In this document: piece after piece, positions 859-45,239 of the stretch | Layout: each line of letters begins with the position of its first letter | Numbering within the stretch: position 1 is the stretch's first letter | NCBI GenBank assembly: GCA_017881075.1 | Contig: JADGRH010000003.1 | Location: 64,682-128,681 of the forward strand | Origin: Minisyncoccota bacterium | GTDB taxonomy: Bacteria; Patescibacteriota; Minisyncoccia; Phycocordibacterales; CAJBRS01 | Direction of reading: 5' to 3' | Length of the DNA: 64,000 nucleotides | Notes under the pieces: generated by a model | Told to the model about the DNA's origin: nothing | The model's input: only the letters and a program-made list of their open reading frames with translations | Databases searched by the model: none | Program-made: the position numbers and the translations under genes

Positions 859-1455
859 GTGAACTTGAAGAAAAAAATAATGGTGTCCGTGGTAGCTGCC
901 GCGATAGTGGTGGCCACTATGGGGATTAGTGAGCATTTCCTTAACCAAGCAGAGATTCGCTTCAATCAACGACAGGAAGCAGAACTTGGCGCCAAACAGT
1001 TTCGTCAGGATGTCCAGCCGATGCTCGACAGCTTCTATTTTGAACACAACTTGCAGGCTGGAGACATGGCTCTTCATGCGGTGGCGTTGGAGAGGGCTCG
1101 TCTCGCAACCTACTACCATGGCGGCTTCGCCCATTACTTATGGGAATCGAATGACCCGATTGACCAAAAGAATGTTCCTCTCGTCGTTATGGCCCGGGAC
1201 AATCTACAACAGTATGTGATCGTCTCTGGAAAGATAACCTATCTGAAAGATGGTGATTGTCAGGAAGAACTCCGATTGGTTATCTATACCTTCCCGCACA
1301 AGAAAGGTGATCCACGACGTCGCGTTGACGAAAATGGGCAAGTGAGTGCCTTTATTAACGAAAAATGGCTCGTCGATCTGGATCAAACTCTTGCAGACAA
1401 AATCCGGGCCCAAGCTTATCTGGCACTTATTGATCGACCGCTTCATATACTCTGA
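859..1455 (+). CDS. secreted/periplasmic hypothetical protein with N-terminal signal peptide
   Basis: 198-aa ORF; N-terminus MNLKKKIMVSVVAAAIVVATMG is signal-peptide-like; GC richer than flanks. Confidence 0.5.
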   Translation: MNLKKKIMVSVVAAAIVVATMGISEHFLNQAEIRFNQRQEAELGAKQFRQDVQPMLDSFYFEHNLQAGDMALHAVALERARLATYYHGGFAHYLWESNDPIDQKNVPLVVMARDNLQQYVIVSGKITYLKDGDCQEELRLVIYTFPHKKGDPRRRVDENGQVSAFINEKWLVDLDQTLADKIRAQAYLALIDRPLHIL

Positions 1456-1583
1456 TGGATGTAGTCGGCGCCCATACTTCAAGTCCTTCACAACGCGACG
1501 TTGTGGAGGCTTTTTATTTTCCTCATGAAATTTTTTTAAAGTTTTGGTTTGAATAATCCTCGGCGATAGGCGATACTCTATCC

Positions 1584-3242: not shown

Positions 3243-3310
3243 TCTTGAAAGGAATTGAACAAAAACCAAAACTAAGTAATAATGGAATGGTTATATAATA
3301 AATCAAAACA

Positions 3311-3730
3311 ATGAGCGAAAAATTTGAACCAAATCCATTGACTCCTGAAACACCTCCTGAGAAATCGATTCAGAGACTTGCTGAAGAGATTTACAAGAAG
3401 AGACCAAAGGATGGCCCTATGATTATTATGGATGTGGACGAGACAAAAAGAGAAGCTCTTTTGACTGCAGTGTCAGTGCTCTGTAAGACTGGTGAAGTTG
3501 AGGAACCAATGCCTCCAATATTTTTTGTTAACGATAAAGAAGATCTTGCTTCATTAGCCCCGAAATTAGTGGATGACGAAAGCACAATAAGACAAGCAAT
3601 GGAAAAACTTCAGCTCGCCGATTTTCCCGAACCAATCTTAGTCGATGAGAAACCTCCAGAACCATGGCACCCAAAAGCTAAACATCCTCCCTGGGAAAAA
3701 CGTCCCAAGAAAAAAGGAAGGAGAAAATAA
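3311..3730 (+). CDS. hypothetical protein, Pro/Lys-rich C-terminus
   Basis: 139-aa ORF immediately upstream of the TrmB-like gene (8-nt gap), probably co-transcribed. Confidence 0.45.
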   Translation: MSEKFEPNPLTPETPPEKSIQRLAEEIYKKRPKDGPMIIMDVDETKREALLTAVSVLCKTGEVEEPMPPIFFVNDKEDLASLAPKLVDDESTIRQAMEKLQLADFPEPILVDEKPPEPWHPKAKHPPWEKRPKKKGRRK

Positions 3731-3737
3731 ATAAAAA

Positions 3738-4505
3738 ATGGCTCAAAATTTATATCAGTTTTTAAAAAACATAGGCATTTCTCAAAAAGAGGTAAATGTT
3801 TACATCTATCTTTTGTCGGTGGAATCAGCTCTGCCAATGGAAATTGCTAAGGAGACCAATCTTAAGAGGTCCACTGTATATGTAATCCTCGAACTCCTAA
3901 AAGAGAAAGGGTTAGTGCGCGAGGTAGAGCGAGGCAAACGCTCCGCCTATATCTCGGAAGACCCGGAAAGAATCAGATTTCTTTTGGAACAACTTCGACT
4001 TCAGACGGAAAATAGTATTAAGGGATTGAATATCATAATTCCTCAACTGAAAGCCACTCTTCGAAAAGAAGGGGAGCCGCCACTGATCAGATTCTTTGAA
4101 GGAGAAAAAGCGGTTCAGGTCTCAATGGAGGAATTGGCGGACAATCCTAAATTTAGAAAAGAGTTAAATTATGATGTTTTTCCACTTGAGCTAATCTATA
4201 AATTATTCCAGAGAAAGAATTTGCGAAAATATATTAATCTTCGCATTCATAACAATGAAAACTTCAAAATCCTCTATACATCAGATGAAGGAGGGTTAAC
4301 CAACGCGGAGACACACGGACAAGAAGCGATCAAGATTGACCAAAAAGAATTTCCTCTATCATGTGACATCGCCATCTTTGAAGATGAGGTTAGAATTCAT
4401 ATGTTGGGTAAACCTATTTACGGCATATTGATTAAAAACTTGGAATTGGCCCAGACTCTCACTAGTATTATCAAATTGGCAATAAAAGGAGCCAAGGTAA
4501 ATTAG
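3738..4505 (+). CDS. TrmB-family winged-helix transcriptional regulator
   Basis: N-terminal HTH pattern Y.FLK..G.S..E..VY.YLL......EIA.ET.L.RSTVY.IL..L.EKGLV typical of TrmB; ~255 aa. Confidence 0.6.
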   Translation: MAQNLYQFLKNIGISQKEVNVYIYLLSVESALPMEIAKETNLKRSTVYVILELLKEKGLVREVERGKRSAYISEDPERIRFLLEQLRLQTENSIKGLNIIIPQLKATLRKEGEPPLIRFFEGEKAVQVSMEELADNPKFRKELNYDVFPLELIYKLFQRKNLRKYINLRIHNNENFKILYTSDEGGLTNAETHGQEAIKIDQKEFPLSCDIAIFEDEVRIHMLGKPIYGILIKNLELAQTLTSIIKLAIKGAKVN

Positions 4506-4858
4506 GCAAATATTTCTCATACAGATTGTTTCAATTATCTAGTAAGAATTAGACAATTATTGTATTTAGTTTGTTAAAACAGGCCTGATTACCCAATTCT
4601 TTTGTTATATATAAACATTTTCTACTTAAAATGAGAGCAACAATTCTTACTCGTCTAATCATCATTGACACTTATTGTCACTTGCTCTAATTTTACATCA
4701 GAAACAGTTTTTTGACAGCCGGCACGGGCTTCCACTTACAGTTTCGCCGGCCTTCTTCACAGCTCGGAGGGGAATTCATTAATGCCCTCCAAGCTGTGAT
4801 CTGCGTTCAAATGGACGTGGAAGGCTAGCAAAACCAAGTAAATAAGGAGAAATAAGTT

Positions 4859-6139
4859 ATGAGTATACGTTTCGTTATCTCAGTTATGTTGGTTGGCCTT
4901 TACATGGCCATATCAATCCTGTATCCAGTAGCCCAAGGCCCGATCGAAGGAAAGATCGCGGCCAGTATGGTCCAAGATAGTGATGCGTCTTATGCAGCGG
5001 CTCACGCCCTGCTCACGACGCATTCGCCGATAACCATTATCGGTTGGGCAGTGTTCATAGCATTGCTCGTCATCTGGGTGCCAGTTTTACGGCGCGCCCT
5101 CAAGCGCCCCACTAAAACGGCAGCGACATTTCTCGGGTGTATCGCCTTTTTGGCGACCATTCTCACCACGGGATGTGTGGGACCTTATAAGGTAGAGAAG
5201 TTCGAGACCATCGAATCAAACGAGACGGCCTTCGTCGTTCCCTTGGAGGGTGCGACGCTCGCCAATCAAGCGAAGTTCATGTCTATCGACTATCTCAATT
5301 CGCCTGAAGTGAAAGTGGCGACCAAGCGGATCACTATTCCGCAACGGCAACGCGACACAGGACGGGTGGCCGGTAATTACGAATGGATTGACACCGTTCG
5401 CGTCATCAAGGTAAACCGGGCGCCTATCACCAGACAGTGGGTGAAGGCCTCAACACAAGGCACTTCTAAATCCGACGAGGCCATCGAGGTGGAGTCTAAA
5501 GAGTCAATCGACTTCTACACCGGAGCGGTCTGCAGCGGGTTTATCGCTGAAGAGGATGCGGCAAGGTTCCTCTATTATTTCGCCGGGAAACCTTTAAGCG
5601 AAGTGATGGACGAGAACGTACGCGGGTATGTTCAAAACCTGATGTGGGTGGAGTTTGGTACGCGGGACTTGACCGCTGCCAAAGAGGCCAAGAAAGAGAT
5701 CATGGATGCGGTTTCCAAATCGACGAAGGAGTTCTACTCCAAGCAAGGGATAACGATCTCTTACGTCGGTGGAGCTGAAGGTCTGACCTACAAGGATCCA
5801 AAGATCCAAGAATCCATCAACTCGGCCTTCATCGCCGAGAATGACCGCAAAGTGGCGGATCAGGAGAATCAGGCCCAAACGATTAGGAATACCAAATTGG
5901 TTTCCATCGCTACAGCACAGCGTCAGGCGGCTGAAGAGTTCGCCAAAGCGCAGAATGCCATGATTGCCAAGACCCAGCTCGAGATCCAAATGAAGCAGGC
6001 AGACGCCATGCTGGAGATCGCGCATAACTCGCACGGCATCAGCATCCAACCGGGTGCGATCTTGTCTGAAGGGTCGCCCTTCCTGTTTGGCCTGGATAAG
6101 GTCACGGGAGCTCGGCCGCCGGTCACTGCAAATAAGTAA
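4859..6139 (+). CDS. membrane-anchored SPFH/band-7-like protein (inferred), GC-rich
   Basis: N-terminal TM segments; C-terminal Ala/Gln/Glu-rich coiled coil resembling HflC/K tails; visibly higher GC than the backbone; SD AGGAGA upstream. Confidence 0.45.
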   Translation: MSIRFVISVMLVGLYMAISILYPVAQGPIEGKIAASMVQDSDASYAAAHALLTTHSPITIIGWAVFIALLVIWVPVLRRALKRPTKTAATFLGCIAFLATILTTGCVGPYKVEKFETIESNETAFVVPLEGATLANQAKFMSIDYLNSPEVKVATKRITIPQRQRDTGRVAGNYEWIDTVRVIKVNRAPITRQWVKASTQGTSKSDEAIEVESKESIDFYTGAVCSGFIAEEDAARFLYYFAGKPLSEVMDENVRGYVQNLMWVEFGTRDLTAAKEAKKEIMDAVSKSTKEFYSKQGITISYVGGAEGLTYKDPKIQESINSAFIAENDRKVADQENQAQTIRNTKLVSIATAQRQAAEEFAKAQNAMIAKTQLEIQMKQADAMLEIAHNSHGISIQPGAILSEGSPFLFGLDKVTGARPPVTANK

Positions 6140-6167
6140 CGACCTTTAAAACGTAGAGAGAAATCTC

Positions 6168-6206
6168 GGCGCGTGGTCCGGTTGAGCAATCAACCCCCAC
6201 GCGCTT
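6168..6206 (+). terminator. rho-independent terminator after the SPFH-like gene
   Basis: GCGCGTGG..loop..CCACGCGC followed by TTTTTT. Confidence 0.6.
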
Positions 6207-6316
6207 TTTTAATTTAACTTTTCTTTATGGGAGATTCATCACCCATTTATATATTTAAGTAATAGCAGAAAGATTTGCAAGGATTTGGGTATTCCTGAAG
6301 AAGATTAAAATTAAAA

Positions 6317-6347
6317 AATCCGGCCGAAGCATTTGTCGGCCGGATTA
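6317..6347. terminator. conserved hairpin AATCCGGCCGA-N8-TCGGCCGGATT (family copy 1), bidirectional terminator
   Basis: perfect stem; A-run upstream and T/A-run downstream; sits between convergent genes; same arms as copies at 7708 and 9474. Confidence 0.65.
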
Positions 6348-6361
6348 TCAAAACCATTCGC

Positions 6362-6733
6362 TTAGCTCACGGATGATTGTGTGAGCTGGAGATCAAGAAG
6401 TCGGATTACTGTGTCGGGCACGTCGTCCTTGCGCGATGCATGACTACATCCGGCCGACATCATCAGTTGTTGGACCTTAAAGCATCCCGCCGCTGTTACT
6501 ATCGGCATGGCAGACTTCTGGCGCAATTCGCGAATGAAAGGTTCAGTATTATAGGTATAGCCCGGAACACAGCCATCAACGACTACCAGATCAAAAGGAT
6601 CCGAGCGGTCCAGGATTTTCTGGGCACCCTCCAAGTCAAACGCTTGGTTGATAACAACCTCGTATCTGCAAAGTTTCTTCTCCCAGTCGAGCTGGTACTG
6701 CGGGTTATCCTCTACAAGTAAGATTTTTTTCAT
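6362..6733 (-). CDS. stand-alone CheY-like receiver domain protein (canonical acidic pocket: LLVEDN .. DLVVVD .. T .. K)
   Basis: MKKILLVEDN, FDLVVVDGCVPG, PIVTAAG motifs; 123 aa; paralog of 7736..8089 and 9503..9856. Confidence 0.6.
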   Translation of the reverse strand: MKKILLVEDNPQYQLDWEKKLCRYEVVINQAFDLEGAQKILDRSDPFDLVVVDGCVPGYTYNTEPFIRELRQKSAMPIVTAAGCFKVQQLMMSAGCSHASRKDDVPDTVIRLLDLQLTQSSVS

Positions 6734-6793
6734 AATTCTAAATCGGATACTACATTAAATGCCAAAAAAATCAAAATCAGGTAGTATTAACCC

Positions 6794-7705
6794 ATGGATC
6801 AATCTCAAAACTCCACTAGAGAATATTCTGCCATTAGCCCAACATCTCGCAGCTCATTTTGGATGAAAACTTTCACCGACATTCCTTACGTGCGGGAAAT
6901 ATACGACGAGCTGGAAAAAGGGAAGCAGAGTGGAGCGGAAAGCAAAATCAGGGATTACGGAATCAATCATGTTGGTCTCTCAAGTATTGCTCCATATTTT
7001 GAGGCGAGATACTTAATCATTAATAGATTATTGAAAGAAGTTGGAGCGACACAGATTATTGAATTAGCTTCCGGCCTCACTCCTCGGGGTCTTGAGCTTA
7101 CCAAAGATCCAAATATCACTTTCATCGAATTAGACCTCCCTGATGTAATCGAAGAGAAAAAGAAAATAGTGGAAAATATTATAAGAGAGCATAAAATCGG
7201 CGATCGTAACAATTTGTATCTGGAAGCAGGAAGCGCCCTGGAAGAAGCGGATATCATGAAAGCCGCCTCTCATTTTGATGAAAAGAAAGAGATCGCTATT
7301 ATTAATGAAGGATTACTTCGCTATCTGAAAAGAGACGAACAGGCAAAAATGGCTCAGGCGATCTTACCCGTGCTTCAAAAATTCGGGGGAGTATGGATCA
7401 CCCCTGATATTGGCATCAGAGATAAAATGCTGGCAGGACAAGCGAAATTGTCGCCGATATTCATAGACAGAACTAAAAAGTTGGAAAAAATGACGGGCGC
7501 TGGAAATTTTTCCGACAACCTTTTCGCCGATGCTGCAGAAGCCAAGGCAATCTATGAAAAACTAGGATTTGAGATAGAGATGCATACTTACTCTGAAGTA
7601 TCCGATCAACTCGTTTCACCCACTAAACTCGGTCAACCAAAAGAGATTACAGACTCACTTATGGAATGGAGCAAGGTCTTTGTGATGCACCCAAAGACCA
7701 AATAA
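6794..7705 (+). CDS. class I SAM-dependent methyltransferase, leucine carboxyl methyltransferase (LCM)/TcmP-like
   Basis: IIELASGLTPRGLEL resembles the LCM motif VV.LGAGLDTR; acidic residue after beta2 (IELDLPD); 303 aa; leaderless-style start 6 nt after TAGTATTA. Confidence 0.5.
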   Translation: MDQSQNSTREYSAISPTSRSSFWMKTFTDIPYVREIYDELEKGKQSGAESKIRDYGINHVGLSSIAPYFEARYLIINRLLKEVGATQIIELASGLTPRGLELTKDPNITFIELDLPDVIEEKKKIVENIIREHKIGDRNNLYLEAGSALEEADIMKAASHFDEKKEIAIINEGLLRYLKRDEQAKMAQAILPVLQKFGGVWITPDIGIRDKMLAGQAKLSPIFIDRTKKLEKMTGAGNFSDNLFADAAEAKAIYEKLGFEIEMHTYSEVSDQLVSPTKLGQPKEITDSLMEWSKVFVMHPKTK

Positions 7706-7707
7706 AA

Positions 7708-7738
7708 AATCCGGCCAGAGAATTCACGGGCCGGATTA
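7708..7738. terminator. conserved hairpin AATCCGGCC-N12-GGCCGGATTA (family copy 2)
   Basis: same arms as 6317 and 9474; between convergent genes. Confidence 0.65.
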
Positions 7739-8089
7739 CGAAAAACTTCTGAGTCCTAACAGCATGATGATGGTATTTACCAAATCGTCAGGATGAGCCT
7801 CATGGGTGCATCGAAAATAATTCAACATAATCTGTCGGATACCGGGACTTTTGTCCACAACCACAATGGGTCCATTGCAATGAGGAGGAAGACTCTTCAG
7901 AAGTGCTCCGGTGTTGAACGTTTTTGACCCAACACAAGTTTCGACGGCTACAAGGTCATAACGATCAGATTCCTCAATCGCGAATCTAACGTCGTAGGCG
8001 TAGCTTGCGCTGACGTCATATTCCTCCAACCTCCTTTGCCACTCGGTCGCCAGGTCATTGTCATTAGTCACAATTAAGATATTCTTCAT
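7736..8089 (-). CDS. receiver-fold paralog with degenerate phospho-acceptor site (ILIVTNDND .. DLVAVETCVG)
   Basis: 117 aa; ~65% identical to 9503..9856; the Asp of the DLVxxD pocket is replaced by Glu and the beta4 Thr is absent. Confidence 0.55.
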   Translation of the reverse strand: MKNILIVTNDNDLATEWQRRLEEYDVSASYAYDVRFAIEESDRYDLVAVETCVGSKTFNTGALLKSLPPHCNGPIVVVDKSPGIRQIMLNYFRCTHEAHPDDLVNTIIMLLGLRSFS

Positions 8090-8219
8090 TAGTCTTTCCT
8101 CATATTACACAGCCTTCCTTGGAAATCAAGGTAGAAATGGAAGTTATACCGAAAATAAAAAAGCGGCCACCCCTTTCGAAGTGCCGCTTGTTTGAACGCG
8201 ATGCGCGCTAAGATACCGC

Positions 8220-9350
8220 TTACTCTCTTAGCATCAGCGAGACCGTGTCGGGGAACGTTGTTGTGTAATCCCCGAAGATCTGCATGCCGAAACTTTTCGG
8301 CGTCACTTTGTCCCAAGTGATCTTCTCGTTGGCACCGGCGCCGGAATATGATCCGACACTCATTGGGGATGTGTGGTACTCGACGAAACCTCCCCATGGT
8401 CTGATGAGCTTGTCCTGTAGACGATGTGATTCGTCTGCGAGGAAGTCATGCTTGAGGTGGGGGACAACGCAAATGGCGAAGTCTCCAGCAATGCCGCCAC
8501 CAAGCTGGACGAAAGCCAGCGGAGTTTTGCGGGTCACGTCCATGTAGAATTCCGCGAGCGCATGCATGTACGAAATCCCCGGAAGGACCACGTTCATGTC
8601 GATCGGCGCCTCGATCTTGTAATTTTTCAAGAACCAATGGTCGCCCTTGTAGCACGCCTGAGCAAAAATATTGCCCATCGTAGAATCTTCGAATCCAGGA
8701 ACGAAGAGCGGAATGTCGAGTTTTGCAGCTTTGCGAAGCCAACATTCTTCCGCATTGGCCGTCGGATCTTTTCTGATCAGATCGTGCTTGAACAGGTGAT
8801 AGAAATACTGATGCCAGAGTTTCCGCTCCTTATTTACTCCGGCGATCCTCCATTGCTTCATGAGCTTGGGCAGGATGACTCTGACCGATTCGTCTTCCGG
8901 CAGGATCGTGTCTGTGATTCGGCGGAAACGAAGGCGGCGAAGCTCCTCTTCCTGTTTGGGCGTCAAGGATTGATAGTTGGGAATGTAGACATAATACTGA
9001 TTTGCTGAGAATCGGTAGGCGCTTTCTTCCATGTTCGCGCCGGTAACTGACATTCCGGCGATGTATCCGGCGTCCATCAGTCTGGTGATGGGTACACCGA
9101 GCTGGAATGATGATCCGGCTCCGGCCATTGATAAGAATATCTTGCCGCCCTCTTCGCAGAAATCTCGAAGCCAAAGGCCGGCATCGACAGTTCTTCCTCC
9201 GTTGCAATGGCGCTTGTTCTGGACCAGTGAATTTGAGACGGGGCTGTCTGCGCTGGGGGTATAACGTCGTTCTCCCACAGTGATCATCTTGCGAAGCCCA
9301 GGACTGAGCTGAGCCATTTTTTGTTTAAGGGACATGATTTGATTTGACAT
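8220..9350 (-). CDS. deoxyhypusine synthase-like protein (DHS/homospermidine synthase family)
   Basis: Blocks matching eukaryotic/archaeal DHS: IPLFVPGFEDSTMGNIF ~ IPVFSPALTDGSLGDMIF, LGGGIAGDF ~ LGGGVVKHH, YSGAGANEKITWDKV ~ DSGARPDEAVSWGKI, C-terminal F.D..TTFP ~ YADASLVFP. Confidence 0.7.
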   Translation of the reverse strand: MSNQIMSLKQKMAQLSPGLRKMITVGERRYTPSADSPVSNSLVQNKRHCNGGRTVDAGLWLRDFCEEGGKIFLSMAGAGSSFQLGVPITRLMDAGYIAGMSVTGANMEESAYRFSANQYYVYIPNYQSLTPKQEEELRRLRFRRITDTILPEDESVRVILPKLMKQWRIAGVNKERKLWHQYFYHLFKHDLIRKDPTANAEECWLRKAAKLDIPLFVPGFEDSTMGNIFAQACYKGDHWFLKNYKIEAPIDMNVVLPGISYMHALAEFYMDVTRKTPLAFVQLGGGIAGDFAICVVPHLKHDFLADESHRLQDKLIRPWGGFVEYHTSPMSVGSYSGAGANEKITWDKVTPKSFGMQIFGDYTTTFPDTVSLMLRE

Positions 9351-9473
9351 AGTGCTTTCCTCGGTTTGTGTTGTTCTTCTCTTCTGAAATCATATTACTT
9401 AAATAGGGGATTAGTTCAAGTTATGGGTTTTCCAAATTTTGAGCGGGTTTTTCACGAAATTGAAGAAAATAAA

Positions 9474-9505
9474 AAATCCGGCCTGTGAATCGGTCGGCCG
9501 GATTA
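9474..9505. terminator. conserved hairpin AATCCGGCC-N12-GGCCGGATTA (family copy 3)
   Basis: same arms; lies directly 3' of receiver paralog 9503..9856. Confidence 0.65.
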
Positions 9506-9856
9506 AGAATAGCGCTTCAATTCAAGAAGAGTGACGATGAGAGACACCAACAAGTCCGGATGCGCGCCATGTGTGCATCCAAAATCTCTAATCATTGCCT
9601 GACGGATCTCCGAACTCTCGTCCACGATCACTATTGGTCCATTAGAATGGGCAGGGAGACTCTTGAGGAGTGGGCCCGTATTGAATGTCTTGGAGCCAAC
9701 GCAGGTCTCTACCGCCACGAGGTCATAACGGTCTTGATTGGAAACCGCATAACTTACGTCATAGGCGTAGCTTGCGTTGACTGCGTATTCATCCAGTCTA
9801 TTCCGCCAATCGGACAGATGGTCATTGTTAGTAGACACAATTAGGATAAACTTCAT
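9503..9856 (-). CDS. receiver-fold paralog with degenerate phospho-acceptor site
   Basis: MKFILIVSTNND .. YDLVAVETCVGSKTFNTG; 117 aa; paralog of 7736..8089. Confidence 0.55.
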   Translation of the reverse strand: MKFILIVSTNNDHLSDWRNRLDEYAVNASYAYDVSYAVSNQDRYDLVAVETCVGSKTFNTGPLLKSLPAHSNGPIVIVDESSEIRQAMIRDFGCTHGAHPDLLVSLIVTLLELKRYS

Positions 9857-19527: not shown

Positions 19528-19791
19528 ATGAAAATCATCGTCAAGGCAAAACCAAAGGCGAAGGAGGAGAAAGTAGAGAGGGTGACCCCTCACCAAATTT
19601 CTTTGAATTTGAAATTTGGTGAGGGGGCTGAAATGGATGTCTATAAAGTTTCGGTCAAAGAGCCGCCGGTAGATGGACGGGCAAATGAGGCCATAACGAA
19701 AGCTTTGGCCAAGCATTTCGGCGTTTCTTTGTCTCAAGTCCGTCTGGTGTCTGGGGCGAGAGGAAAGAAGAAGATTTTTGAAATTAAGTAA
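19528..19791 (+). CDS. YggU/DUF167 family protein
   Basis: PVDGRANEAITKALAKHFGVSLSQVRLVSGARGKKK matches the DUF167 core. Confidence 0.7.
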   Translation: MKIIVKAKPKAKEEKVERVTPHQISLNLKFGEGAEMDVYKVSVKEPPVDGRANEAITKALAKHFGVSLSQVRLVSGARGKKKIFEIK

Positions 19792-24434: not shown

Positions 24435-25556
24435 ATGAATACAATCAAAGCAGGGGTTTTTCTTCTCGGTCTAATTCTTCTCGGGCTACCTCTTCCCTCG
24501 CTTGCTAGTTCCAAGATTACTGATTTCAAAGCTCGGCCGCCGGTGCATGTGCTCGGCGCACCGGCGGCCTTCCCCAAAGGTCTTTCTCCAGATCAGGTTA
24601 AAGGTGTTTACCATCTGCCGAAAACTGGCGGTCATGGAACCATTGCCATCATTGTAGCCTATGACGATCCGACTATTGAAAACGATCTAAATGTTTTTAG
24701 TCGAGCATTTAATTTACCGACCTGTACATATCAGAATAATTGTTTAGAGAAACATCCGATGGGCGAAAATCTTTCTTCCAATAAGAATTGGTCGCTCGAG
24801 ACCTCGCTTGATGTTGAGTGGGCACATGCCATAGCTCCAAGAGCAAAGATTCTTTTAATTGAATCAAAAACATCCGGCGGTAATAATCTTCTTGGAGCTA
24901 TTGATTATGCAAGAAGTCGTAGAGATGTGGTAGCTGTATCAATGAGTTGGGGAGGGGCGGAGTTTCCGAGTGAAGTTAATTTGGATTCTCAATTCCAAAG
25001 TTCATCTGGCGCCACTTTCTTTGCTTCTTCTGGCGACAACGGCGCCGGTGTAAGTTGGCCATCTGTTTCTTCAAATGTAGTATCTGTCGGTGGTACTTCT
25101 CTCGGGTTTTCTTTAAACGGGAATTTTCTTAAAGAAATGGCCTGGAGTGGAAGCGGTGGTGGGGTAAGTAAATATGAGAAAGAACCGACATACCAACTCT
25201 CTTACAATATCCCAAGATCAAATAGTATGAGATCTATTCCGGATGTTTCTTATAATGCCGATCCGGCTTCAGGCTTTTCGGTCTATCGAAGTGTTCCGCA
25301 TTCATTACAGTCAACTAAAAATTGGTACGTCATTGGTGGCACCAGTGCTGGCGCTCCACAATGGGCCGCCATAAAATCTCTTGGCCTCTCAGCGTCCAAT
25401 GAAAAGTTTTACACTGATAAAGCAGCGGATAACAATGCCTCATATTTTCGTGATATAACCAGCGGCACGAATGGCGATTGCACCTATTATTGTCAGGCCA
25501 GAAAACATTATGATTATGTTACCGGTCTCGGCAGTCCACAAACTATCTCTTTCTGA
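24435..25556 (+). CDS. secreted S8/S53 (sedolisin-like) serine peptidase
   Basis: signal peptide; SSGDNGAG and GGTSAGAPQWAAI motifs. Confidence 0.5.
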   Translation: MNTIKAGVFLLGLILLGLPLPSLASSKITDFKARPPVHVLGAPAAFPKGLSPDQVKGVYHLPKTGGHGTIAIIVAYDDPTIENDLNVFSRAFNLPTCTYQNNCLEKHPMGENLSSNKNWSLETSLDVEWAHAIAPRAKILLIESKTSGGNNLLGAIDYARSRRDVVAVSMSWGGAEFPSEVNLDSQFQSSSGATFFASSGDNGAGVSWPSVSSNVVSVGGTSLGFSLNGNFLKEMAWSGSGGGVSKYEKEPTYQLSYNIPRSNSMRSIPDVSYNADPASGFSVYRSVPHSLQSTKNWYVIGGTSAGAPQWAAIKSLGLSASNEKFYTDKAADNNASYFRDITSGTNGDCTYYCQARKHYDYVTGLGSPQTISF

Positions 25557-34757: not shown

Positions 34758-36584
34758 ATGGACTTGGAAAGAATCAGAAATTTCAGTATCATTGCTCATA
34801 TTGACCACGGAAAATCGACGCTGGCGGACCGTATGCTGGAGATCACTCATACTATAGAAAAGCGCAAAATGATGGATCAGGTGCTGGATAATATGGAGCT
34901 TGAGCGGGAGAAGGGAATCACCATCAAGATGCGGCCGGTGAGGATGATTTACACCACCTCCAACCCCCTCCTTGATCAAAGAGGGGGCACATCCTACATC
35001 TTAAATCTTATTGACACCCCCGGCCACATCGATTTCTCCTACGAAGTGTCGCGGGCCCTGAAAGCCGTGGAGGGCTCTATTTTGCTCGTAGATGCCACAC
35101 AGGGCGTCCAGGCGCAGACCCTTACAACCTTAGGCATGGCTCGCGACCTTGGCCTTACCATCATCCCAGTGCTCTCAAAAGTGGATTCACCACTGGCTCG
35201 AATTAAGGAGGTAAAAGAGGAAGTGTCGCGACTATTAGATTGTCTACAGGAAAGCATTTTAGAGACTTCCGGTAAAACAGGTCAAGGGGTTGACAACTTA
35301 CTTCAGGAAATCATTCGAAGAGTGCCGCCACCTCACGAATTATTGAAGTCAGACTTCGATAAATCTAATTTTCGTGCTCTAGTTTTCGATTTCCAGTACT
35401 CAAATCATAAGGGGGTAATTGTTTACGTGCGAGTTTTGGATGGACAGGTGGCTAAGAATGCCGAGCTTTTATTTACTGTGGCGAAAGAAAAGTTTTTTGC
35501 ACTAGAAGTGGGGATTTTTAAGCCGGAAGAGTCGCCGGCGGCGGTCTTAGCCGCCGGCGAGATTGGCTATATTGTCACCGGCATTAAAAAGCCAGGCATT
35601 GCTTCGGTTGGAGACACTGTCACTCTTCTGAAAAAACCACTGCCGGCTCTTTCTGGTTACGAGCGACCAGCTCCGGTGGTTTGGGCATCAATTTATCCAG
35701 AAGATGCTGATGATTTTGATTTGCTTCGACAGGCGCTTGGGCGTCTTCGCCTGTCGGACTCCTCCTTTTCATATGAAGAGGAATCATCAGGCTCGCTGGG
35801 CCGCGGCTTTAGATGCGGTTTTCTTGGACTGTTGCATCTTGAAATTATCACGGAGCGATTGAAGCGAGAATTTCGTTTGCAACTAATTATCGCTACCCCT
35901 TCTATTACCTATGAGGTGACGTATAAGAATGGGAAGAAGGCGATTGTTTATTCACCATCATTATTTCCCGAACAGAACGAAGTGGAAAGCGTCTTGGAAC
36001 CGTGGATGAAGCTACAAATCCTTACCCCATCATTATATTTAGGGAAACTATCCCAGCTTCTCTATGACCACGAAGGAGAAATGGATCATTCAGAAACATT
36101 TGGTGATGGCAGAACTTCGCTCTCTGTTAAGATTCCGCTTCGGGAACTGATGCGGAACTTTTTCGATGAGTTAAAAAGCGTTTCTTCCGGCTTCGCCTCA
36201 CTCTCATACGAATTTGAAAGTATGCGTCCGGCCGAAGTGGTGCGGCTGGATATTTTGGTAGCAGATGAGCCGGTGGAGGCTTTTACCAGAGTGGTATCGG
36301 TGAGGAGAGTACAGGAAGAGGCGGAGAAAGCGGTGGAAAAACTCCACTCCATTTTGCCTCGACAAATGTTTGTAACTAAGATTCAAGGAAAGGCCCTTGG
36401 CAGAATTCTCTCATCTGCAACCCTATCAGCTATGAAGAAAGATGTTACCCAGCACATGTATGGAGGAGATATCACTCGAAAGATGAAGCTGCGGGAAAAA
36501 CAAAAAAAAGGAAAGAAAAAAATGAAGGCGCGCGGCAAGGTCAATATTCCGCACGAGACGTTTTTGAAGATGATGAAAAGCTAG
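34758..36584 (+). CDS. lepA: elongation factor 4 (LepA)
   Basis: NFSIIAHIDHGKSTLADR, DTPGHIDF, LepA-specific C-terminal domain, Lys-rich tail; contains the in-frame palindrome at 34964..34987. Confidence 0.85.
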   Translation: MDLERIRNFSIIAHIDHGKSTLADRMLEITHTIEKRKMMDQVLDNMELEREKGITIKMRPVRMIYTTSNPLLDQRGGTSYILNLIDTPGHIDFSYEVSRALKAVEGSILLVDATQGVQAQTLTTLGMARDLGLTIIPVLSKVDSPLARIKEVKEEVSRLLDCLQESILETSGKTGQGVDNLLQEIIRRVPPPHELLKSDFDKSNFRALVFDFQYSNHKGVIVYVRVLDGQVAKNAELLFTVAKEKFFALEVGIFKPEESPAAVLAAGEIGYIVTGIKKPGIASVGDTVTLLKKPLPALSGYERPAPVVWASIYPEDADDFDLLRQALGRLRLSDSSFSYEEESSGSLGRGFRCGFLGLLHLEIITERLKREFRLQLIIATPSITYEVTYKNGKKAIVYSPSLFPEQNEVESVLEPWMKLQILTPSLYLGKLSQLLYDHEGEMDHSETFGDGRTSLSVKIPLRELMRNFFDELKSVSSGFASLSYEFESMRPAEVVRLDILVADEPVEAFTRVVSVRRVQEEAEKAVEKLHSILPRQMFVTKIQGKALGRILSSATLSAMKKDVTQHMYGGDITRKMKLREKQKKGKKKMKARGKVNIPHETFLKMMKS

Positions 36585-38778: not shown

Positions 38779-39678
38779 ATGAATGAAATTCTTATAACTA
38801 AAGCTTCTAAAGATTACGAGCTTATTGATAGTGGAAAAGGGGAGAAACTGGAACGATACGGTCAGTTTGTTTTGCGTCGGCCGGATCCGCAGGCTCTTTG
38901 GCCTAGATTTTTAAATAAGGAAGTTTGGGAAAAGGCCGACGCCATTTTCGCCCCGCCTCGGGCGGGACAGGGTGGCGTCGGCAAACCGAGTTGGACATTA
39001 AAATCCGGCATTCCTAATAGCTGGCAGATTAATTTTGGCGGATTGAAATTTGTAATTAAACTGACAGCTTTCAAGCATACCGGTCTTTTTCCGGAGCAAC
39101 TGTCTAATTGGGAATGGATTGAGGAAAGAGTAAGGGCGGCCGCCGGAGGCACAGGCGGCCGCCAGTTGTCTATTCTCAATCTCTTCGGTTACACAGGCGG
39201 TGCAAGCCTCGCTGTCGCCAAAGCTGGTGCCTCTGTCACCCACGTGGATGGCTCTAAAAGCGCCATAACTTGGGCTAAAGGGAACGCCGAGGCCTCCGGC
39301 CTCGGCTCCGCCCCCATCCGCTGGATTCTCGACGATTGCCGCAAATTTCTAGAACGAGAGATAAAAAGAGGTAATCACTACGACGGCGTTATCATGGATC
39401 CGCCCGCCTTCGGCCATGGGCCAAATAAGGAGCTGTGGAAGATAGAGGACCATTTTTTAAAACTTTTAGAACTATCTTTTCAAGTTCTTTCGCTGAATCC
39501 CGCTTTCTTTTTGATTAACGGTTATGCTTCTGGATACTCGGCAGTAGCTTATGAAAATAATTTGAAAGTACTCGTAGATAAATTCGGCGGCAAAATTGAA
39601 AAAGGGGAACTCACCATCATGGAATCCACTGGTAAGCGCCTCTTACCTTGTGGCATTTTTGCCAGATGGGCTGATTAA
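38779..39678 (+). CDS. class I SAM-dependent RNA methyltransferase (RlmI/RlmK-like)
   Basis: NLFGYTGGASLAVAKAGA (motif I), VIMDPPAFG (motif IV), N-terminal PUA-like region. Confidence 0.55.
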   Translation: MNEILITKASKDYELIDSGKGEKLERYGQFVLRRPDPQALWPRFLNKEVWEKADAIFAPPRAGQGGVGKPSWTLKSGIPNSWQINFGGLKFVIKLTAFKHTGLFPEQLSNWEWIEERVRAAAGGTGGRQLSILNLFGYTGGASLAVAKAGASVTHVDGSKSAITWAKGNAEASGLGSAPIRWILDDCRKFLEREIKRGNHYDGVIMDPPAFGHGPNKELWKIEDHFLKLLELSFQVLSLNPAFFLINGYASGYSAVAYENNLKVLVDKFGGKIEKGELTIMESTGKRLLPCGIFARWAD

Positions 39679-41296: not shown

Positions 41297-43343
41297 CCAT
41301 TAATAAACCCGACTCCTGATTCGGAACGAGTGACCAAATCTCTTCGGTGATGAATGGCATGAAGGGGTGAAGCAGTTTCAGAATGATATTTAAAGTATAA
41401 CCCAAAACTTGAGCAGTCGTTTCGGTGTCTTGTGTCTTAGAATACTCAATATATTTATCAGCGAAATCATGCCAAATAAAATCATACAGGTCGTGAGAGG
41501 CTTTACCGAACTGGTAAGTTTCAATATTCTGACTAACGAAAGCCCCGACCTCGTCCAATCGGGTCAAAAGTTCATGATCTTCGTCACTACTAATATTACC
41601 GGGTAATTTGACACCGATTTTGTCACCAGTCTTTTCTAAAACATAGCGACTGATATTCCAAAGCTTGTTGCTGAACTTCTTTCCCATAGCAATATTATCT
41701 TCGCTGAATCGGATCTCTTGTCCACCGAATTCCTGGTAGATCAGTCCAAAACGAACGGCGTCGGCCCCATACTTATCAATGAAAGTTACTGGATCAAGCC
41801 CAGTGCCGAGAGATTTACTCATTCTTTTACCGTCCTTAGTCAGAATGGTGGCGTGGATAAGCGCATCTTTAAAAGGTTTCTCGTTCATGAATTCCAGACC
41901 GGAGAAAATCATTCGAGACATCCACAAATGCATGATATCTCGAGCTGAAGTAACAAAGGCCGTTGGATAAAAAGTGTCTAAATCCTTTGTTTTCTCTGGC
42001 CAACCTAAAGCGGCAAAAGGCCAGAGAGCGGCGGAAAACCAGGTATCAAAAGTATCCTCACTCCCTTCAATTGGAATTTTATGACCCCACCAAATCTGTC
42101 GGGAAATACACCAGTCTCTAACGTTTCCAAGCCAATCAAGCGCTACTCCTTTCCATCTATCGGGATAATAATTAACCTCGCTGGATTCAATGGCCTTAAT
42201 GGCTTTTTCGGCGAGTGGTTTCATTTTCAAAAACCATTGTTTGGAGAGCAGGGGTTCGATAGTGGATCTGCAGCGGTAACATTTTGCCACGTTGTGAGTG
42301 AAATCTTCCTCTTTCTCTATCAGATTTAATCTTCTTAATTCATCTAGGATTTTTTCTCGAGCGGCGGCGATTTTAAGCCCATCGAAATCGCCGCCGATAT
42401 TTATAATCTTTCCGATCTCGTCAACGACTTTGTGATAGGGAAGTTTATTTTGATCAGCCACCTGACTGTCAAAATAATCGTGAGCCGGAGTGATTTTCAC
42501 CGCGCCGGTGCCGAATTCTTTATCAATCAATCTGTCGGTAATAATTGGAATCTTTCTATTAAGGATCGGCAAAACTGCCGTTTTGCCGATCATTTTTTTA
42601 TATCGTTCGTCATTCGGATTGACTGCGACAGCGCTGTCACCAAGCATTGTTTCCGGCCGAGTAGTGGCGACGGTAATAAATTCAACGGAATCTTCAATCG
42701 GATATTTAATATAGTAAAGTTTTGATTTCTCCTCCTGATATTCCAATTCCAGATCAGATAGGGCCGTTTGGTCTTTAATACACCAATTAATCACACGCTC
42801 TCCTTGATATATTAAACCCTTCTCGTGATAATGATTGAAAGCGGTTTTAACCGCCTGCTGATATTTCTCGTCCATGGTAAATCGGAGCCGTGACCAATCA
42901 AGAGAACAGCCCAATGATTTTAGTTGTTCTAGAATAGTACTGCCGTATTTTTCTCTCCATTCCCAAATTTTCTCAATAAATTTTTCTTTACCGAGATCAT
43001 GACGAGTCAGCCCCTGTTTTTTCAGATCTTTTTCCACAACATTTTGAGTGGCAATGCCAGCGTGGTCGGTGCCAGGGACCCACAATGTTTTGAAACCGCG
43101 CATGCGGTGATATCGTATTAAGACGTCAGAGACGGTATTCTCCAGCGCGTGACCCATGTGGAGCGAGCCGGTAATGTTGGGGGGAGCGATCATGATGGTG
43201 TAGGGCTTCTTTCGCTCGCCCGGCAGGTTATCCGGATTAAAAAAACCGCTCTTTTCCCAGAGCGAATAGATGCGGGACTCAGTGTCCTTTGGATCGTAAG
43301 GTTTAAGCAGTTTTTCGGGAGTCATTGGGATAAATATTAACAT
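41271..43343 (-). CDS. valS: valyl-tRNA synthetase (short form lacking C-terminal coiled coil)
   Basis: PPNITGSLHMGHA, KMSKSLGTG, ValRS editing/CP1 region; 690 aa. Confidence 0.8.
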   Translation of the reverse strand: MLIFIPMTPEKLLKPYDPKDTESRIYSLWEKSGFFNPDNLPGERKKPYTIMIAPPNITGSLHMGHALENTVSDVLIRYHRMRGFKTLWVPGTDHAGIATQNVVEKDLKKQGLTRHDLGKEKFIEKIWEWREKYGSTILEQLKSLGCSLDWSRLRFTMDEKYQQAVKTAFNHYHEKGLIYQGERVINWCIKDQTALSDLELEYQEEKSKLYYIKYPIEDSVEFITVATTRPETMLGDSAVAVNPNDERYKKMIGKTAVLPILNRKIPIITDRLIDKEFGTGAVKITPAHDYFDSQVADQNKLPYHKVVDEIGKIINIGGDFDGLKIAAAREKILDELRRLNLIEKEEDFTHNVAKCYRCRSTIEPLLSKQWFLKMKPLAEKAIKAIESSEVNYYPDRWKGVALDWLGNVRDWCISRQIWWGHKIPIEGSEDTFDTWFSAALWPFAALGWPEKTKDLDTFYPTAFVTSARDIMHLWMSRMIFSGLEFMNEKPFKDALIHATILTKDGKRMSKSLGTGLDPVTFIDKYGADAVRFGLIYQEFGGQEIRFSEDNIAMGKKFSNKLWNISRYVLEKTGDKIGVKLPGNISSDEDHELLTRLDEVGAFVSQNIETYQFGKASHDLYDFIWHDFADKYIEYSKTQDTETTAQVLGYTLNIILKLLHPFMPFITEEIWSLVPNQESGLLMVAKWPVST

Positions 43344-43539
43344 AAAAGCAAACGACCCCCGAACACAATATGCGCTCTAGGGGGTCGAAAAAGGAGAAGG
43401 TTCTAACGTCCGGACCTAAGACCCAAAGGTGCTCAATGGGAAAATGATTCGTCCCTTTGCGGCTGGCCATAACTCTCAATCAACTTTTCTATTTAGAATT
43501 ATAGCATATCGGTGAAAAAAGTCAAGGTTAGAATAGGTC

Positions 43540-44793
43540 TTATTTTAAGGCTAGATTTCCATTAGCTCCGAAATCGGATTTCGGGTTTTTGTCACTTAAA
43601 TAATTGAAATAACCAGCCATGGCGATCATAATGGCGTTGTCGGTGGAGAGGTGGGAGTCGGGAATTAGGAGTTGGGTGTCAGGAGAAGCAGCGATTAAAT
43701 CTTGAAAGGAGCGGCGGAGGTGGGTATTGGCGATTACACCTCCGCCGACTATTAGAGTTTTAATATCAAATTCTTCAATGGCTCGTTTGGTTTTGGTAAT
43801 CAATACTTCAGTGACCGAATCTTCAAATTCTCTGGCCATTTTTGCTTTCCATTCTGGATCTGATTTTTCTTTGTCGGTCATTTTTTTAATTGTGTAAAGG
43901 ACGGCAGTTTTCAATCCGGAAAAAGAGAAATCGTAATCGTTTGATTTGATCATTGGTCTGGGCAAAACAAAGTTGCAGAGGTTTGACCTCTGCAAGTGAT
44001 CTGCAGAGGTCAGACCTCTGCAACGCTCTAAATCGGCCAATTTTGAGATTTCAGGCCCGCCAGGGTAGGGAAGATCCAGCATTCTAGCCACCTTATCAAA
44101 AGCTTCTCCAACCGCGTCATCACGAGTTTGACCAATGATTTTGTATTTTTTCCATGCTTCAATTAAGACTAGCTCAGTATGGCCACCGCTAATGAGAAGT
44201 GCTAAAGCTGGAAAAGAAAAGCTGACAGTTGGTAACTGATAGCTTTCAGCTTTAGATTTTTTTGGTAATAAAGCTGACATAATGTGTCCTTCCATGTGAT
44301 TAGTAGGAATGACAGGCAGATCCCAAACGAATCCCAACGCCTTGGCAAAATTAATACCGACCCAAAGTGCTGGCTCAAGACCGGGGCCGGTGGTGACGGC
44401 AATGGCTTCAATATCCGGCTTAGGAATTGTCGGAATAAATTTAAGAAATTGTTCGAGTAATTCAGGCTCGCGTTCTAGGATCTTTTTCAAACCCCCTCCA
44501 ACTCCCCCTTGTCTAAGGGGGAGAGGAAGCCCCCCCTCCTCAAACGAGGAGGGGGTAGGGGGTGGTGTTGAACCCAATTTATCTAATAACTCTTTTAACA
44601 ACGGAATCAGATTTCTAGAATGCTCTCTCTTCGCCATCATCGGATACACTCCGCCATATTTTTCATGAATTTTAGTCTGGGAATTAAGCGCTTCAGCAAT
44701 CACTTTAAATTGAGGTCGCTCAAAACCGCCATTGGATTCCACGATAGCGAGCGCTGTTTCATCACAGCTAGTTTCAATACCTAGGATTTTCAT
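43540..44793 (-). CDS. tsaD: tRNA N6-adenosine threonylcarbamoyltransferase TsaD with two in-frame repeat-derived insertions
   Basis: MKILGIETSCDETA, HMEGH, GGVAN-type, DFSFSGLKTA motifs; 417 aa vs ~340 typical; see findings for the insertions. Confidence 0.8.
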   Translation of the reverse strand: MKILGIETSCDETALAIVESNGGFERPQFKVIAEALNSQTKIHEKYGGVYPMMAKREHSRNLIPLLKELLDKLGSTPPPTPSSFEEGGLPLPLRQGGVGGGLKKILEREPELLEQFLKFIPTIPKPDIEAIAVTTGPGLEPALWVGINFAKALGFVWDLPVIPTNHMEGHIMSALLPKKSKAESYQLPTVSFSFPALALLISGGHTELVLIEAWKKYKIIGQTRDDAVGEAFDKVARMLDLPYPGGPEISKLADLERCRGLTSADHLQRSNLCNFVLPRPMIKSNDYDFSFSGLKTAVLYTIKKMTDKEKSDPEWKAKMAREFEDSVTEVLITKTKRAIEEFDIKTLIVGGGVIANTHLRRSFQDLIAASPDTQLLIPDSHLSTDNAIMIAMAGYFNYLSDKNPKSDFGANGNLALK

Positions 44794-44816
44794 TTGCTTG
44801 CCATGAGTTTATCGAA

Positions 44817-44893
44817 TGGTGGGCGATAGAGGACTCGAACCTCTGGCATCAACAACGTCAATGTTGCGCTCTACCAGCTGAGCTAATCGCCCG
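44817..44893 (-). tRNA. tRNA-Val (anticodon GAC), CCA encoded
   Basis: revcomp GGGCGATTAGCTCAGCTGGTAGAGC .. CAACA-TTGACGT-TGTTG .. GGTTCGAGTCC .. CCACCA. Confidence 0.8.
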
Positions 44894-44930
44894 TTCGTTT
44901 AATCTATCATTTTAACAATTTGTAAACAAT

Positions 44931-45018
44931 GCGGAGGAGAGAGGATTTGAACCTCTGATGCGGTTTCCCACATGCCGGTTTTCGAAACCGGTGCCTTCAA
45001 CCACTCAGCCACTCCTCC
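44931..45018 (-). tRNA. tRNA-Ser (anticodon CGA), type II
   Basis: revcomp GGAGGAGTGGCTGAGTGGTTGAAGGC .. CCGGT-TTCGAAA-ACCGG; long variable arm; GGTTCAAATCC. Confidence 0.75.
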
Positions 45019-45046
45019 GTGAGAATTTATGGTAGCATATTTTGGA

Positions 45047-45118
45047 GGCCCTATCGTCTAACGGTTAGGACATCGCCTTTTCAAGGCGGTAATCCGGGTT
45101 CGATTCCCGGTAGGGTCA
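45047..45118 (+). tRNA. tRNA-Glu (anticodon TTC)
   Basis: GGCCCTATCGTCTAACGGTTAGGAC .. loop TTTTCAA .. GGTTCGATTCC .. TAGGGTC-A. Confidence 0.75.
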
Positions 45119-45239
45119 CAGATTTTGTAACTATATTTTGCAACGTATTTTGACTTACCCGATAGGATGTTCAGAACTTTTGTTGTGTTCTATTGATCAT
45201 CCTTTCGTGAGCCGAGTAAAATTTGATATAATTGAAACA

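Follow-up and report, generated by a model that had tools for sequence, protein, structure and literature searches.

We analysed a 64,000-nt stretch of DNA from a Minisyncoccota bacterium (contig JADGRH010000003.1, positions 64,682 to 128,681; hereafter named the window), in which tsaD, the gene for an essential tRNA-modification enzyme, contains a GC-rich 80-nt insert built from two hairpins. Our results suggest that this insert is probably one copy of a dispersed, non-coding palindromic element, similar to the REP (repetitive extragenic palindromic) and REPIN repeats, which is tolerated in a loop of the TsaD protein. The insert belongs to a family of sequences with a common architecture, is absent from the closest TsaD orthologues, lies in-frame and encodes a segment predicted to be disordered, and the same family occurs both between genes and in-frame within other housekeeping genes. 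These results are in agreement with the original prediction, made from the letters of the window, that a repeat-derived segment is read in-frame and tolerated by an essential gene; members of the family were found elsewhere, and the tsaD reading frame simply runs through the insert.

A composite palindromic element within tsaD

The tsaD open reading frame (ORF; 43540..44793, minus strand) encodes 417 amino acids (aa) and stays open through both hairpins, which it reads as ..LGSTPPPTPSSFEEGGLPLPLRQGGVGGGLKK.. in the protein. A profile search identified the product as TsaD (Pfam PF00814, E=4.3e-75), the TsaD structures of E. coli, Salmonella and others in the PDB matched it at 1e-54 to 1e-66, and both the HMEGH metal-binding motif and the GPGL motif were present.

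The complete element (44489..44568, minus strand) consists of a head, hairpin 1, a spacer, hairpin 2 and a tail, and encodes TsaD residues 76-102 (TPPPTPSSFEEGGLPLPLRQGGVGGGL). On the coding strand the head motif ACCACCCCC (44558..44566, minus strand) is located 2 nt (TA) 5' of hairpin 1, which reads CCCCCTCCTC-AAAC-GAGGAGGGGG on the plus strand (44532..44555) and has a perfect stem of 10 bp. An 8-nt spacer (44524..44531) separates it from hairpin 2, which reads CTCCCCCTT-GTCT-AAGGGGGAG on the plus strand (44502..44523) and has a perfect stem of 9 bp. The G-rich tail GGAGGGGGT (44491..44499, minus strand) pairs with the head as ACCCCCU/AGGGGGU. Thus the two perfect hairpins had been predicted correctly in both sequence and position, as had their GC content, which is far above the local background (0.637 over 44489-44568 and 0.633 over the 60 nt of 44500-44559, compared with 0.422 in the remainder of tsaD). 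They had, however, been taken for two local palindromes. In the predicted folds of both RNA and DNA the outer stem ACCCCCU/AGGGGGU encloses both hairpins, showing that they form one composite unit, the 80-nt element of a dispersed family. The RNA fold of the element region had an energy of -55.6 kcal/mol per 101 nt with z=-3.45, and the DNA fold gave z=-4.7. The exact head motif ACCACCCCC occurs once in the 64 kb, counting both strands, at its position 2 nt from hairpin 1, and hairpins of the CCCCCT..AGGGGG type number four in the window against 0.08 expected. Within the linker, CCC accounts for three of the six Pro codons and GGG for four of the seven Gly codons, these being the rarest Pro and Gly codons of the window (16% and 15%).

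The palindromes had further been credited with an insertion of ~45 aa. As a measure of the extra segment this was close, as query residues 77-124, that is 48 extra aa, were unmatched in the E. coli TsaD structures, but only ~27 of these residues are palindrome-encoded. The palindromic module is confined to the hypervariable linker, residues 76-102 (~27 aa; 44489-44568), and residues 103-124 (KKILEREPELLEQFLKFIPTIP; 44422..44487, minus strand), which had been counted as part of the insertion, lie outside the element and are conserved in the clade. This conserved segment, I.KILEREPEL..FL..IPTI.KP, was kept across 29 relatives in the alignment, with L106 and E109 invariant, and was found in all of the long-form TsaD loci surveyed. 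Among 55 TsaD loci surveyed, the distance from the REH motif to GPGL had a baseline of 71-74 aa in a Patescibacteria subclade compared with ~36 aa in other bacteria. In the window it is 84 aa, which is ~10-13 aa net above the baseline of the subclade, and the two closest TsaD orthologues (65-66% identity) were found by both alignment and covariance model to be without the palindromic module. The addition of ~36 aa after helix α1 is itself a mark of this subclade of TsaD proteins (the window and loci L003-L013, L015, L027 and L031), and other bacterial TsaD proteins are without it.

An AlphaFold2 model of the protein, calculated from a 29-sequence TsaD alignment, had a mean pLDDT (predicted local distance difference test) of 85.6. 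Residues 98-105 and 110-122 were modelled as helices with block values of 91-94, and values below 50 were obtained at residues 78-96, 180-188 and 265-272. In this model the palindrome-encoded linker is predicted to be a disordered surface loop.

A related linker is present in the TsaD of locus L004 (58% identical), where a Pro/Gly-like motif, TPLNLRGGEGEL, occupies the same position and the DNA again has a perfect related hairpin with a GGGGGAG tail. The objection that such Pro/Gly segments might occur in related proteins without palindromic DNA is therefore not supported by this locus.

A dispersed family of double-hairpin sequences

Metagenome contigs were scanned with hairpin 1 alone, as CCCCCTCCT-N2-10-AGGAGGGGG, the flanks being outside the pattern. 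At least 120 contigs, ranging in GC content from 0.29 to 0.73, contained a match. Among the matches listed, CC[AT]CCCCC stood directly 5' in 37 of the 134 hairpins and GGGGG[AT]GG directly 3' in 36, with a single hairpin having both flanks. Head-type flanks accompanied 53% of the hairpins listed, compared with 0.2% at random positions, and 115 flanks among these matches gave the head consensus ACC[A/C]CCCCC(C/T)AA. The head precedes the hairpin by 2-3 nt, or its complement follows it, an arrangement that the window copy fits, and the dinucleotide or short stretch adjacent to the stem is variable (AA, CAG, CAA, TG, TAG and others). Complete doublets have the order head, NN, hairpin, spacer, inverted hairpin, NN and tail, with spacers of 8 to ~190 nt, and the window copy aligns to them. 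The element is thus composed of two inverted modules of ~35 nt, in which the head reads as the G-rich tail on the opposite strand.

A covariance model, named R1, was built from nine metagenome doublets with the window copy excluded. It matched 44489-44568 over its full length (model positions 1-96) at 41.4 bits (E=2.3e-7), and no other match in the window was better than E=0.01. Immediately beyond the searched motif, 152 of 178 copies have a complementary base pair, where 62 would be expected. All four pair types are represented, indicating that the stem itself is maintained. RNAalifold folded the family as one long hairpin of 35 pairs. A length fixed at a multiple of three was rejected as a property of the element, as the complete copies were 75-100 nt long and included every residue modulo 3. 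A built-in stop-free design was likewise rejected: in ten complete copies 28 of 60 frames were open, the same as in composition-matched shuffles, so that the in-frame copies reflect selection after insertion rather than a built-in property. An Rfam search over 43400-45200 brought only three tRNAs to threshold, the element giving matches with E of 2 or more, far below the gathering scores. The family was not found described in the literature, which was searched by sequence strings and topic with subscription journals outside that search.

The hosts of the family are Patescibacteria, Sphingomonadales, Moraxella and phage. In contigs of less than 50% GC, 23 of the 35 evaluable hairpins among the matches listed were outside long ORFs and 8 were inside. 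In Moraxella osloensis plasmids the narG-narH spacer matched hairpin 2 with the tail at 91% identity over 33-35 nt, and there the module closes a similar doublet; the same hairpin 2 plus tail module was present in five viral contigs, with a chance expectation estimated at ~0.001. A Novosphingobium capsulatum plasmid carries the family at eight places, one of them 7 nt after treA, and in a 67%-GC contig a copy lies between valS and a putative queE-like gene, assigned from reading the translation. A Mu-like phage contig (L208; IMGVR_UViG_3300042114_000163), carrying Portal_Mu, Gp27, Mu F and a terminase, has six modules in 9.6 kb (1355-9623). Most of these occupy gene junctions, shortly before ribosome-binding sites, and the portal gene has one doublet in-frame in its C-terminal part. 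Such a phage is a possible vehicle for horizontal spread. No family match was obtained in the cultured phages of INPHARED.

In-frame copies were found in hosts that Pfam identified as FtsK (two sites), ValRS, MnmA, RsgA, Mfd, another TsaD, an RluD-like S4/PseudoU_synth_2 protein and an AMP-binding enzyme (acyl-CoA synthetase), in each case positioned between or beside the Pfam domains. The contig with the MnmA host has a GC content of 0.29, and for the ValRS and TsaD hosts the nearest group is Patescibacteria. Depending on the host, the same DNA is read in all three frames, as ..NPLL..EG.GGG.., ..PSSF.EEGG.. or ..PPPL.KEGG... Two unrelated genes in different low-GC contigs, those for FtsK (L101, 7364-9706) and MnmA (L187, 7510-8760), have a longer composite in common. 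In it a hairpin is followed by GGGGGTGGT, an A/T-rich loop, ACCACC, a mini-hairpin GCC(C)-N3-4-(G)GGC and a second hairpin, and the whole encodes ..PLL..EG.GGGN.KK..P.L.GTPP.QGG... Thus the modules are also arranged tail-to-head with an extra mini-hairpin.

Within the window, lepA (34758..36584, plus strand) carries one module of the family on its own. At 34953..34987 (plus strand) the head ACCACCTCC is followed by AA and the palindrome CCCCCTCCTTGATCAAAGAGGGGG, and the module encodes TTSNPLLDQRGG. The palindrome is 24 nt long and near-perfect, and the head has one mismatch and the same spacing as in the tsaD copy. Against three solved EF4/LepA structures the module gives a clean 7-aa gap (SNPLLDQ), located in the turn before the DTPGH motif. 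Its score with the full-doublet model R1 was weak (11 bits), as expected for a single module.

With R1, no copy was found in 1.25 Mb around TsaD from 82 other genomes, the closest relative included, and the simple CCCCT..AGGGG pattern was rare among 84 TsaD loci. The family is therefore patchy, and it was rejected as a general feature of the candidate phyla radiation (CPR).

Origin of the tsaD insert

If the insert is a copy of a dispersed REP/REPIN-like element, it would have entered the hypervariable linker after TsaD helix α1. By analogy with REP and REPIN sequences, mobilisation may have been carried out by a Y1 transposase, either a RAYT (REP-associated tyrosine transposase) or one of the IS200/IS605 type, acting on single-stranded hairpins. 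The copy would have persisted because it keeps the reading frame, happens to have no stop codon in that frame, and is presumably read as a Pro/Gly-rich, disordered surface loop that leaves the fold undisturbed. Thus the element seems to have arrived by insertion, and it is presumably translated and neutral or nearly neutral.

Several observations weigh against this explanation. No target-site duplication was detected, none of the 11 complete copies being flanked by a direct repeat. All-against-all BLASTP of the ORFs within 3 kb of copies (771 ORFs from 120 contigs) gave no protein family in more than three contigs and no recurrent transposase. The family has no GTAG or CGTC tag, the head consensus being ACCACCCCC(C/T)AA, and it is from the distribution of the copies that mobility is suggested. 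The modules of the family in the 64 kb are three in number and all intragenic, so that the evidence for repetition within this genome is thin. The net gains (~10-13 aa in tsaD and 7 aa in lepA) are smaller than the element, so that they do not define the insertion boundaries. Part of the R1 score is circular, since the training copies were chosen by the window's own hairpin-1 arms; the support independent of that selection consists only of the head, the tail, the second hairpin and the doublet architecture. The window tail GGAGGGGGT also departs from the main consensus GGGGGTGGT; it is a variant that the Moraxella and viral copies have as well, in the form TT-N-GAGGGGG. Finally, unrelated perfect hairpins are abundant in conserved coding sequence without any change in length, and a second, non-insertional hairpin-making process in this lineage could have contributed at tsaD.

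The last point bears directly on the strongest alternative. Perfect hairpins whose stems reach 9 bp or more number 18 inside the window ORFs, compared with 2.2±1.5 in synonymous-codon shuffles, and those whose stems reach 10 bp or more number 11, compared with 0.8; the excess was also examined against dinucleotide shuffles. Per 10 kb of coding sequence, the window and its closest relative have 3.5 and 6.2 perfect hairpins, against a typical 0-2.5. Several are in conserved, length-invariant segments (valS 42564-42591, with a 12-bp stem and encoding MIGKTAVLPI; valS 42362-42396; lepA 35532-35560), indicating that these were made by substitutions or codon choice rather than by insertion. The closest relative (L003, GCA_035652395.1) has similar hairpins in YbeY, TrxB (motif VAGIWAAGD), PrsW and a methyltransferase. 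The window-wide excess could be due to template-switch conversion or to selection for structure, and template switching has been published as an explanation for an excess of perfect inverted repeats (PMC5941160; PMC8794818). A palindrome in TsaD (..ETRAKISEILARE..), at the boundary of linker and helix, forms a perfect 15-bp stem in locus L010 and is mismatched in L009. The two loci differ by clustered changes that restore pairing and alter amino acids (N to K, L to I), a pattern that fits quasipalindrome conversion and is the signature expected of template-switch homogenisation.

Template switching in situ, through quasipalindrome conversion or inverted duplication, might accordingly have created the tsaD hairpins in a pre-existing Pro/Gly linker, in which case their C5/G5 likeness to the family would be convergent. 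The excess of ORF hairpins, their presence in length-invariant conserved segments, the L009/L010 pair and the published precedent all favour such a process. It leaves unexplained, however, the family-spaced head ACCACCCCC, the tail and the doublet architecture, as well as the match at E=2.3e-7 of a model made from unrelated contigs and the occurrence of hairpin 2 and tail in near-identical form on a Moraxella plasmid and viral contigs. We consider this origin unlikely, and in its pure form it was rejected for this element because of the shared head, tail and architecture. Template switching may nevertheless keep the stems of the element perfect.

The hairpin cluster could also be functional in place, as mRNA or DNA, and regulate tsaD by translation pausing between subdomains, by mRNA stability or as a protein-binding site, whether co-opted from a mobile element or independent of one. 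The very stable fold (-55.6 kcal/mol per 101 nt) is consistent with this, and in each hairpin a Shine-Dalgarno-like run, AGGAGG, is sequestered by pairing with CCUCCU. The co-varying stems point in the same direction, as do the solo modules of the Mu-like phage, which closely precede ribosome-binding sites at gene junctions, and REPs have been proposed elsewhere as RNA elements (PMC3733652). However, the element is not conserved at this site in any other TsaD surveyed, in other hosts the family occupies unrelated linkers and loops, and there was no Rfam match, so that we regard a regulatory role at tsaD as quite unlikely.

Selection at the protein level for a Pro/Gly linker as a flexible tether, with the palindromy as a by-product of complementary CCN and GGN codons, has been largely refuted already and appears very unlikely. 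Pro and Gly do form loops, and other CPR TsaD proteins have P/G-containing linkers of similar length. Against this, the two stems do not share a codon register, the linker draws on the rarest Pro and Gly codons, and such hairpins are lost on synonymous shuffling. Moreover, the same DNA is found between genes and in three frames (PLL.., PSS.. and PPP..) across hosts, and the closest orthologues are without the segment, which is predicted to be disordered. An assembly or amplification artefact (a fold-back chimera) has a negligible probability: chimeric reads can yield palindromes and the source is a metagenome-assembled genome, but an independently assembled Logan contig of the run SRR10489828 agrees at every one of 2580 nt, the whole of tsaD included, the frame is preserved, and the same architecture is found in many unrelated assemblies and in finished plasmids. 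The insert is therefore not a chimera of the genome assembly.

Relation to known repeats and other palindromes in the window

In REPs one palindrome end bears a conserved tetranucleotide, GTAG or CGTC, and the cognate RAYT, a Y1 transposase, is typically flanked by its REPs. The double-hairpin family resembles REP, REPIN and BIME (bacterial interspersed mosaic element) sequences in having short GC-rich palindromic units with a conserved non-palindromic head beside the stem. As in REPs and REPINs, units are often paired in inverted orientation across a short spacer and can fold as one long hairpin. REP and REPIN copies are numerous in a genome and predominantly extragenic, located downstream of genes, with a minority inside housekeeping genes; in the double-hairpin family most of the evaluable hairpins of low-GC contigs are outside long ORFs, and the three modules of the window are all intragenic. 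It differs from them in having the head ACCACCCCC and no GTAG or CGTC tag, and in that no RAYT was among the recurrent proteins within 3 kb of copies in the 120 contigs, the window ORFs not having been screened for Y1 transposases. A single-copy RAYT gene would probably be located beyond the 64 kb. The encoded peptides also differ, the sphingomonad CGTC-1 REP family giving VIPAKAG..IPAFAGMT compared with PLL..EGG.GGG in the double-hairpin family. Di Nocera et al. (2013; PMC3733652) described intragenic REPs, single or as dimers, that encode 8-30 aa within tRNA synthetase, pseudouridine synthase and repair genes. REPIN families are described as lineage-specific and vertically inherited, whereas near-identical double-hairpin sequences are found in Alphaproteobacteria, a Gammaproteobacteria plasmid, Mu-like phage contigs and Patescibacteria.

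Rickettsia palindromic elements (RPEs) are a second close parallel. According to PMC10969869, which summarises Ogata et al. (2000, 2002), these are palindromic repeats located in-frame in unrelated essential genes of the reduced Rickettsia genomes, where they are translated and compatible with the protein fold. The double-hairpin copies are similarly in-frame in unrelated housekeeping ORFs (tsaD, lepA, those for FtsK, ValRS and MnmA, and others), where they are presumably translated. Going by their descriptions, RPE-1 to RPE-10 can be set apart from the family, being ~100-150 bp long, not C5/G5-rich and restricted to Rickettsia, whereas the element is 80 nt with 35-nt modules and a cross-phylum distribution. 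Template-switch inverted repeats (PMC5941160, PMC8794818, PMC8604942) likewise have perfect stems and short loops inside genes, but they are unique to a locus, whereas the double-hairpin element shares its head, arms, tail and architecture with unrelated genomes. Miniature inverted-repeat transposable elements (Correia/NEMIS, ERIC, RUP, Nezha and others) are also small and non-autonomous, with inverted-repeat ends, strong structure and a sometimes intragenic location. The double-hairpin copies differ from these in having no target-site duplication, no identifiable parent insertion sequence and no recurrent adjacent transposase. In yeast mitochondria, GC clusters and byp elements are GC-rich hairpin insertions in organelle genes. 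GC-rich palindromes are also tolerated in essential coding genes of the compact mitochondrial genomes of Nematomorpha (PMC6649704). These organelle cases concern a different domain of life and much longer repeats or bypassed elements, whereas the tsaD ORF simply reads through.

In-frame insertions of REPs and RPEs are thus already known, and the double-hairpin sequences are a new family within that phenomenon. More tentatively, and with less confidence than we have in the origin of the tsaD insert, we suggest that one hairpin-doublet element may be common to Sphingomonadales, Moraxella plasmids, Mu-like phages and several Patescibacteria lineages. Such an element would be horizontally mobile, unlike REPINs, and might be a recurrent source of Pro/Gly insertions in essential CPR proteins (TsaD, LepA, ValRS, FtsK and MnmA), playing in CPR the part that the RPEs play in Rickettsia. 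Many Patescibacteria (CPR) proteins exceed their homologues in length. Dispersed palindromic DNA located in loops and inter-domain linkers, and read as disordered Pro/Gly peptide, would be one concrete source of this extra length. Such segments inflate the apparent divergence of proteins and create low-complexity 'motifs' that are in fact DNA repeats, and masking them is advisable when CPR proteins are aligned, placed in phylogenies or submitted to structure prediction. Should the cross-phylum distribution hold, the family would be a useful exception to the view that REP-type elements stay within a lineage. It would also be a tractable system for finding the mobiliser, because sphingomonads and Moraxella can be cultured.

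The original prediction of two separate repeat-derived inserts in tsaD also held. The second is a doublet at 43972..44024, made of two copies of TGCAGAGGTywGACCTCTGCAA and corresponding to TsaD residues ~256-274, which adds ~9 aa compared with the closest orthologues (P0002 and P0003). It can form one long hairpin (RNA fold z=-8.4), and the region of pLDDT below 50 at residues 265-272 lies inside it, so that this insert too is predicted to be disordered. In sequence it is unrelated to the C5/G5 double-hairpin family. A search of viral contigs with this palindrome (TGCAGAGGT..) gave one match, estimated to be at about chance level, and thus no evidence of a dispersed family.

Immediately upstream of tsaD are three tRNA genes, Val-GAC (minus strand), Ser-CGA (minus strand) and Glu-TTC (plus strand), at 44817-45119. 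The spacer between tsaD and valS contains a hairpin, CGACCCCC-N19-GGGGGTCG, at 43353-43387. Further perfect GC-rich hairpins are located in ORFs at 35727-35756 (lepA), 39135-39163 and 24535-24569. A short ORF (19528..19791) contains a 16-bp perfect hairpin, CCCCTCACCAAATTTC-N9-GAAATTTGGTGAGGGG, at 19585-19627, which is a weak match to R1 (E=0.013). Three intergenic hairpins within 3.2 kb (6317-6346, 7708-7737 and 9475-9504) have the stem AATCCGGCC...GGCCGGATT in common and differ in their loops of 8-12 nt. With its conserved stem and variable loop, this group looks like another REP-like, or terminator, family.

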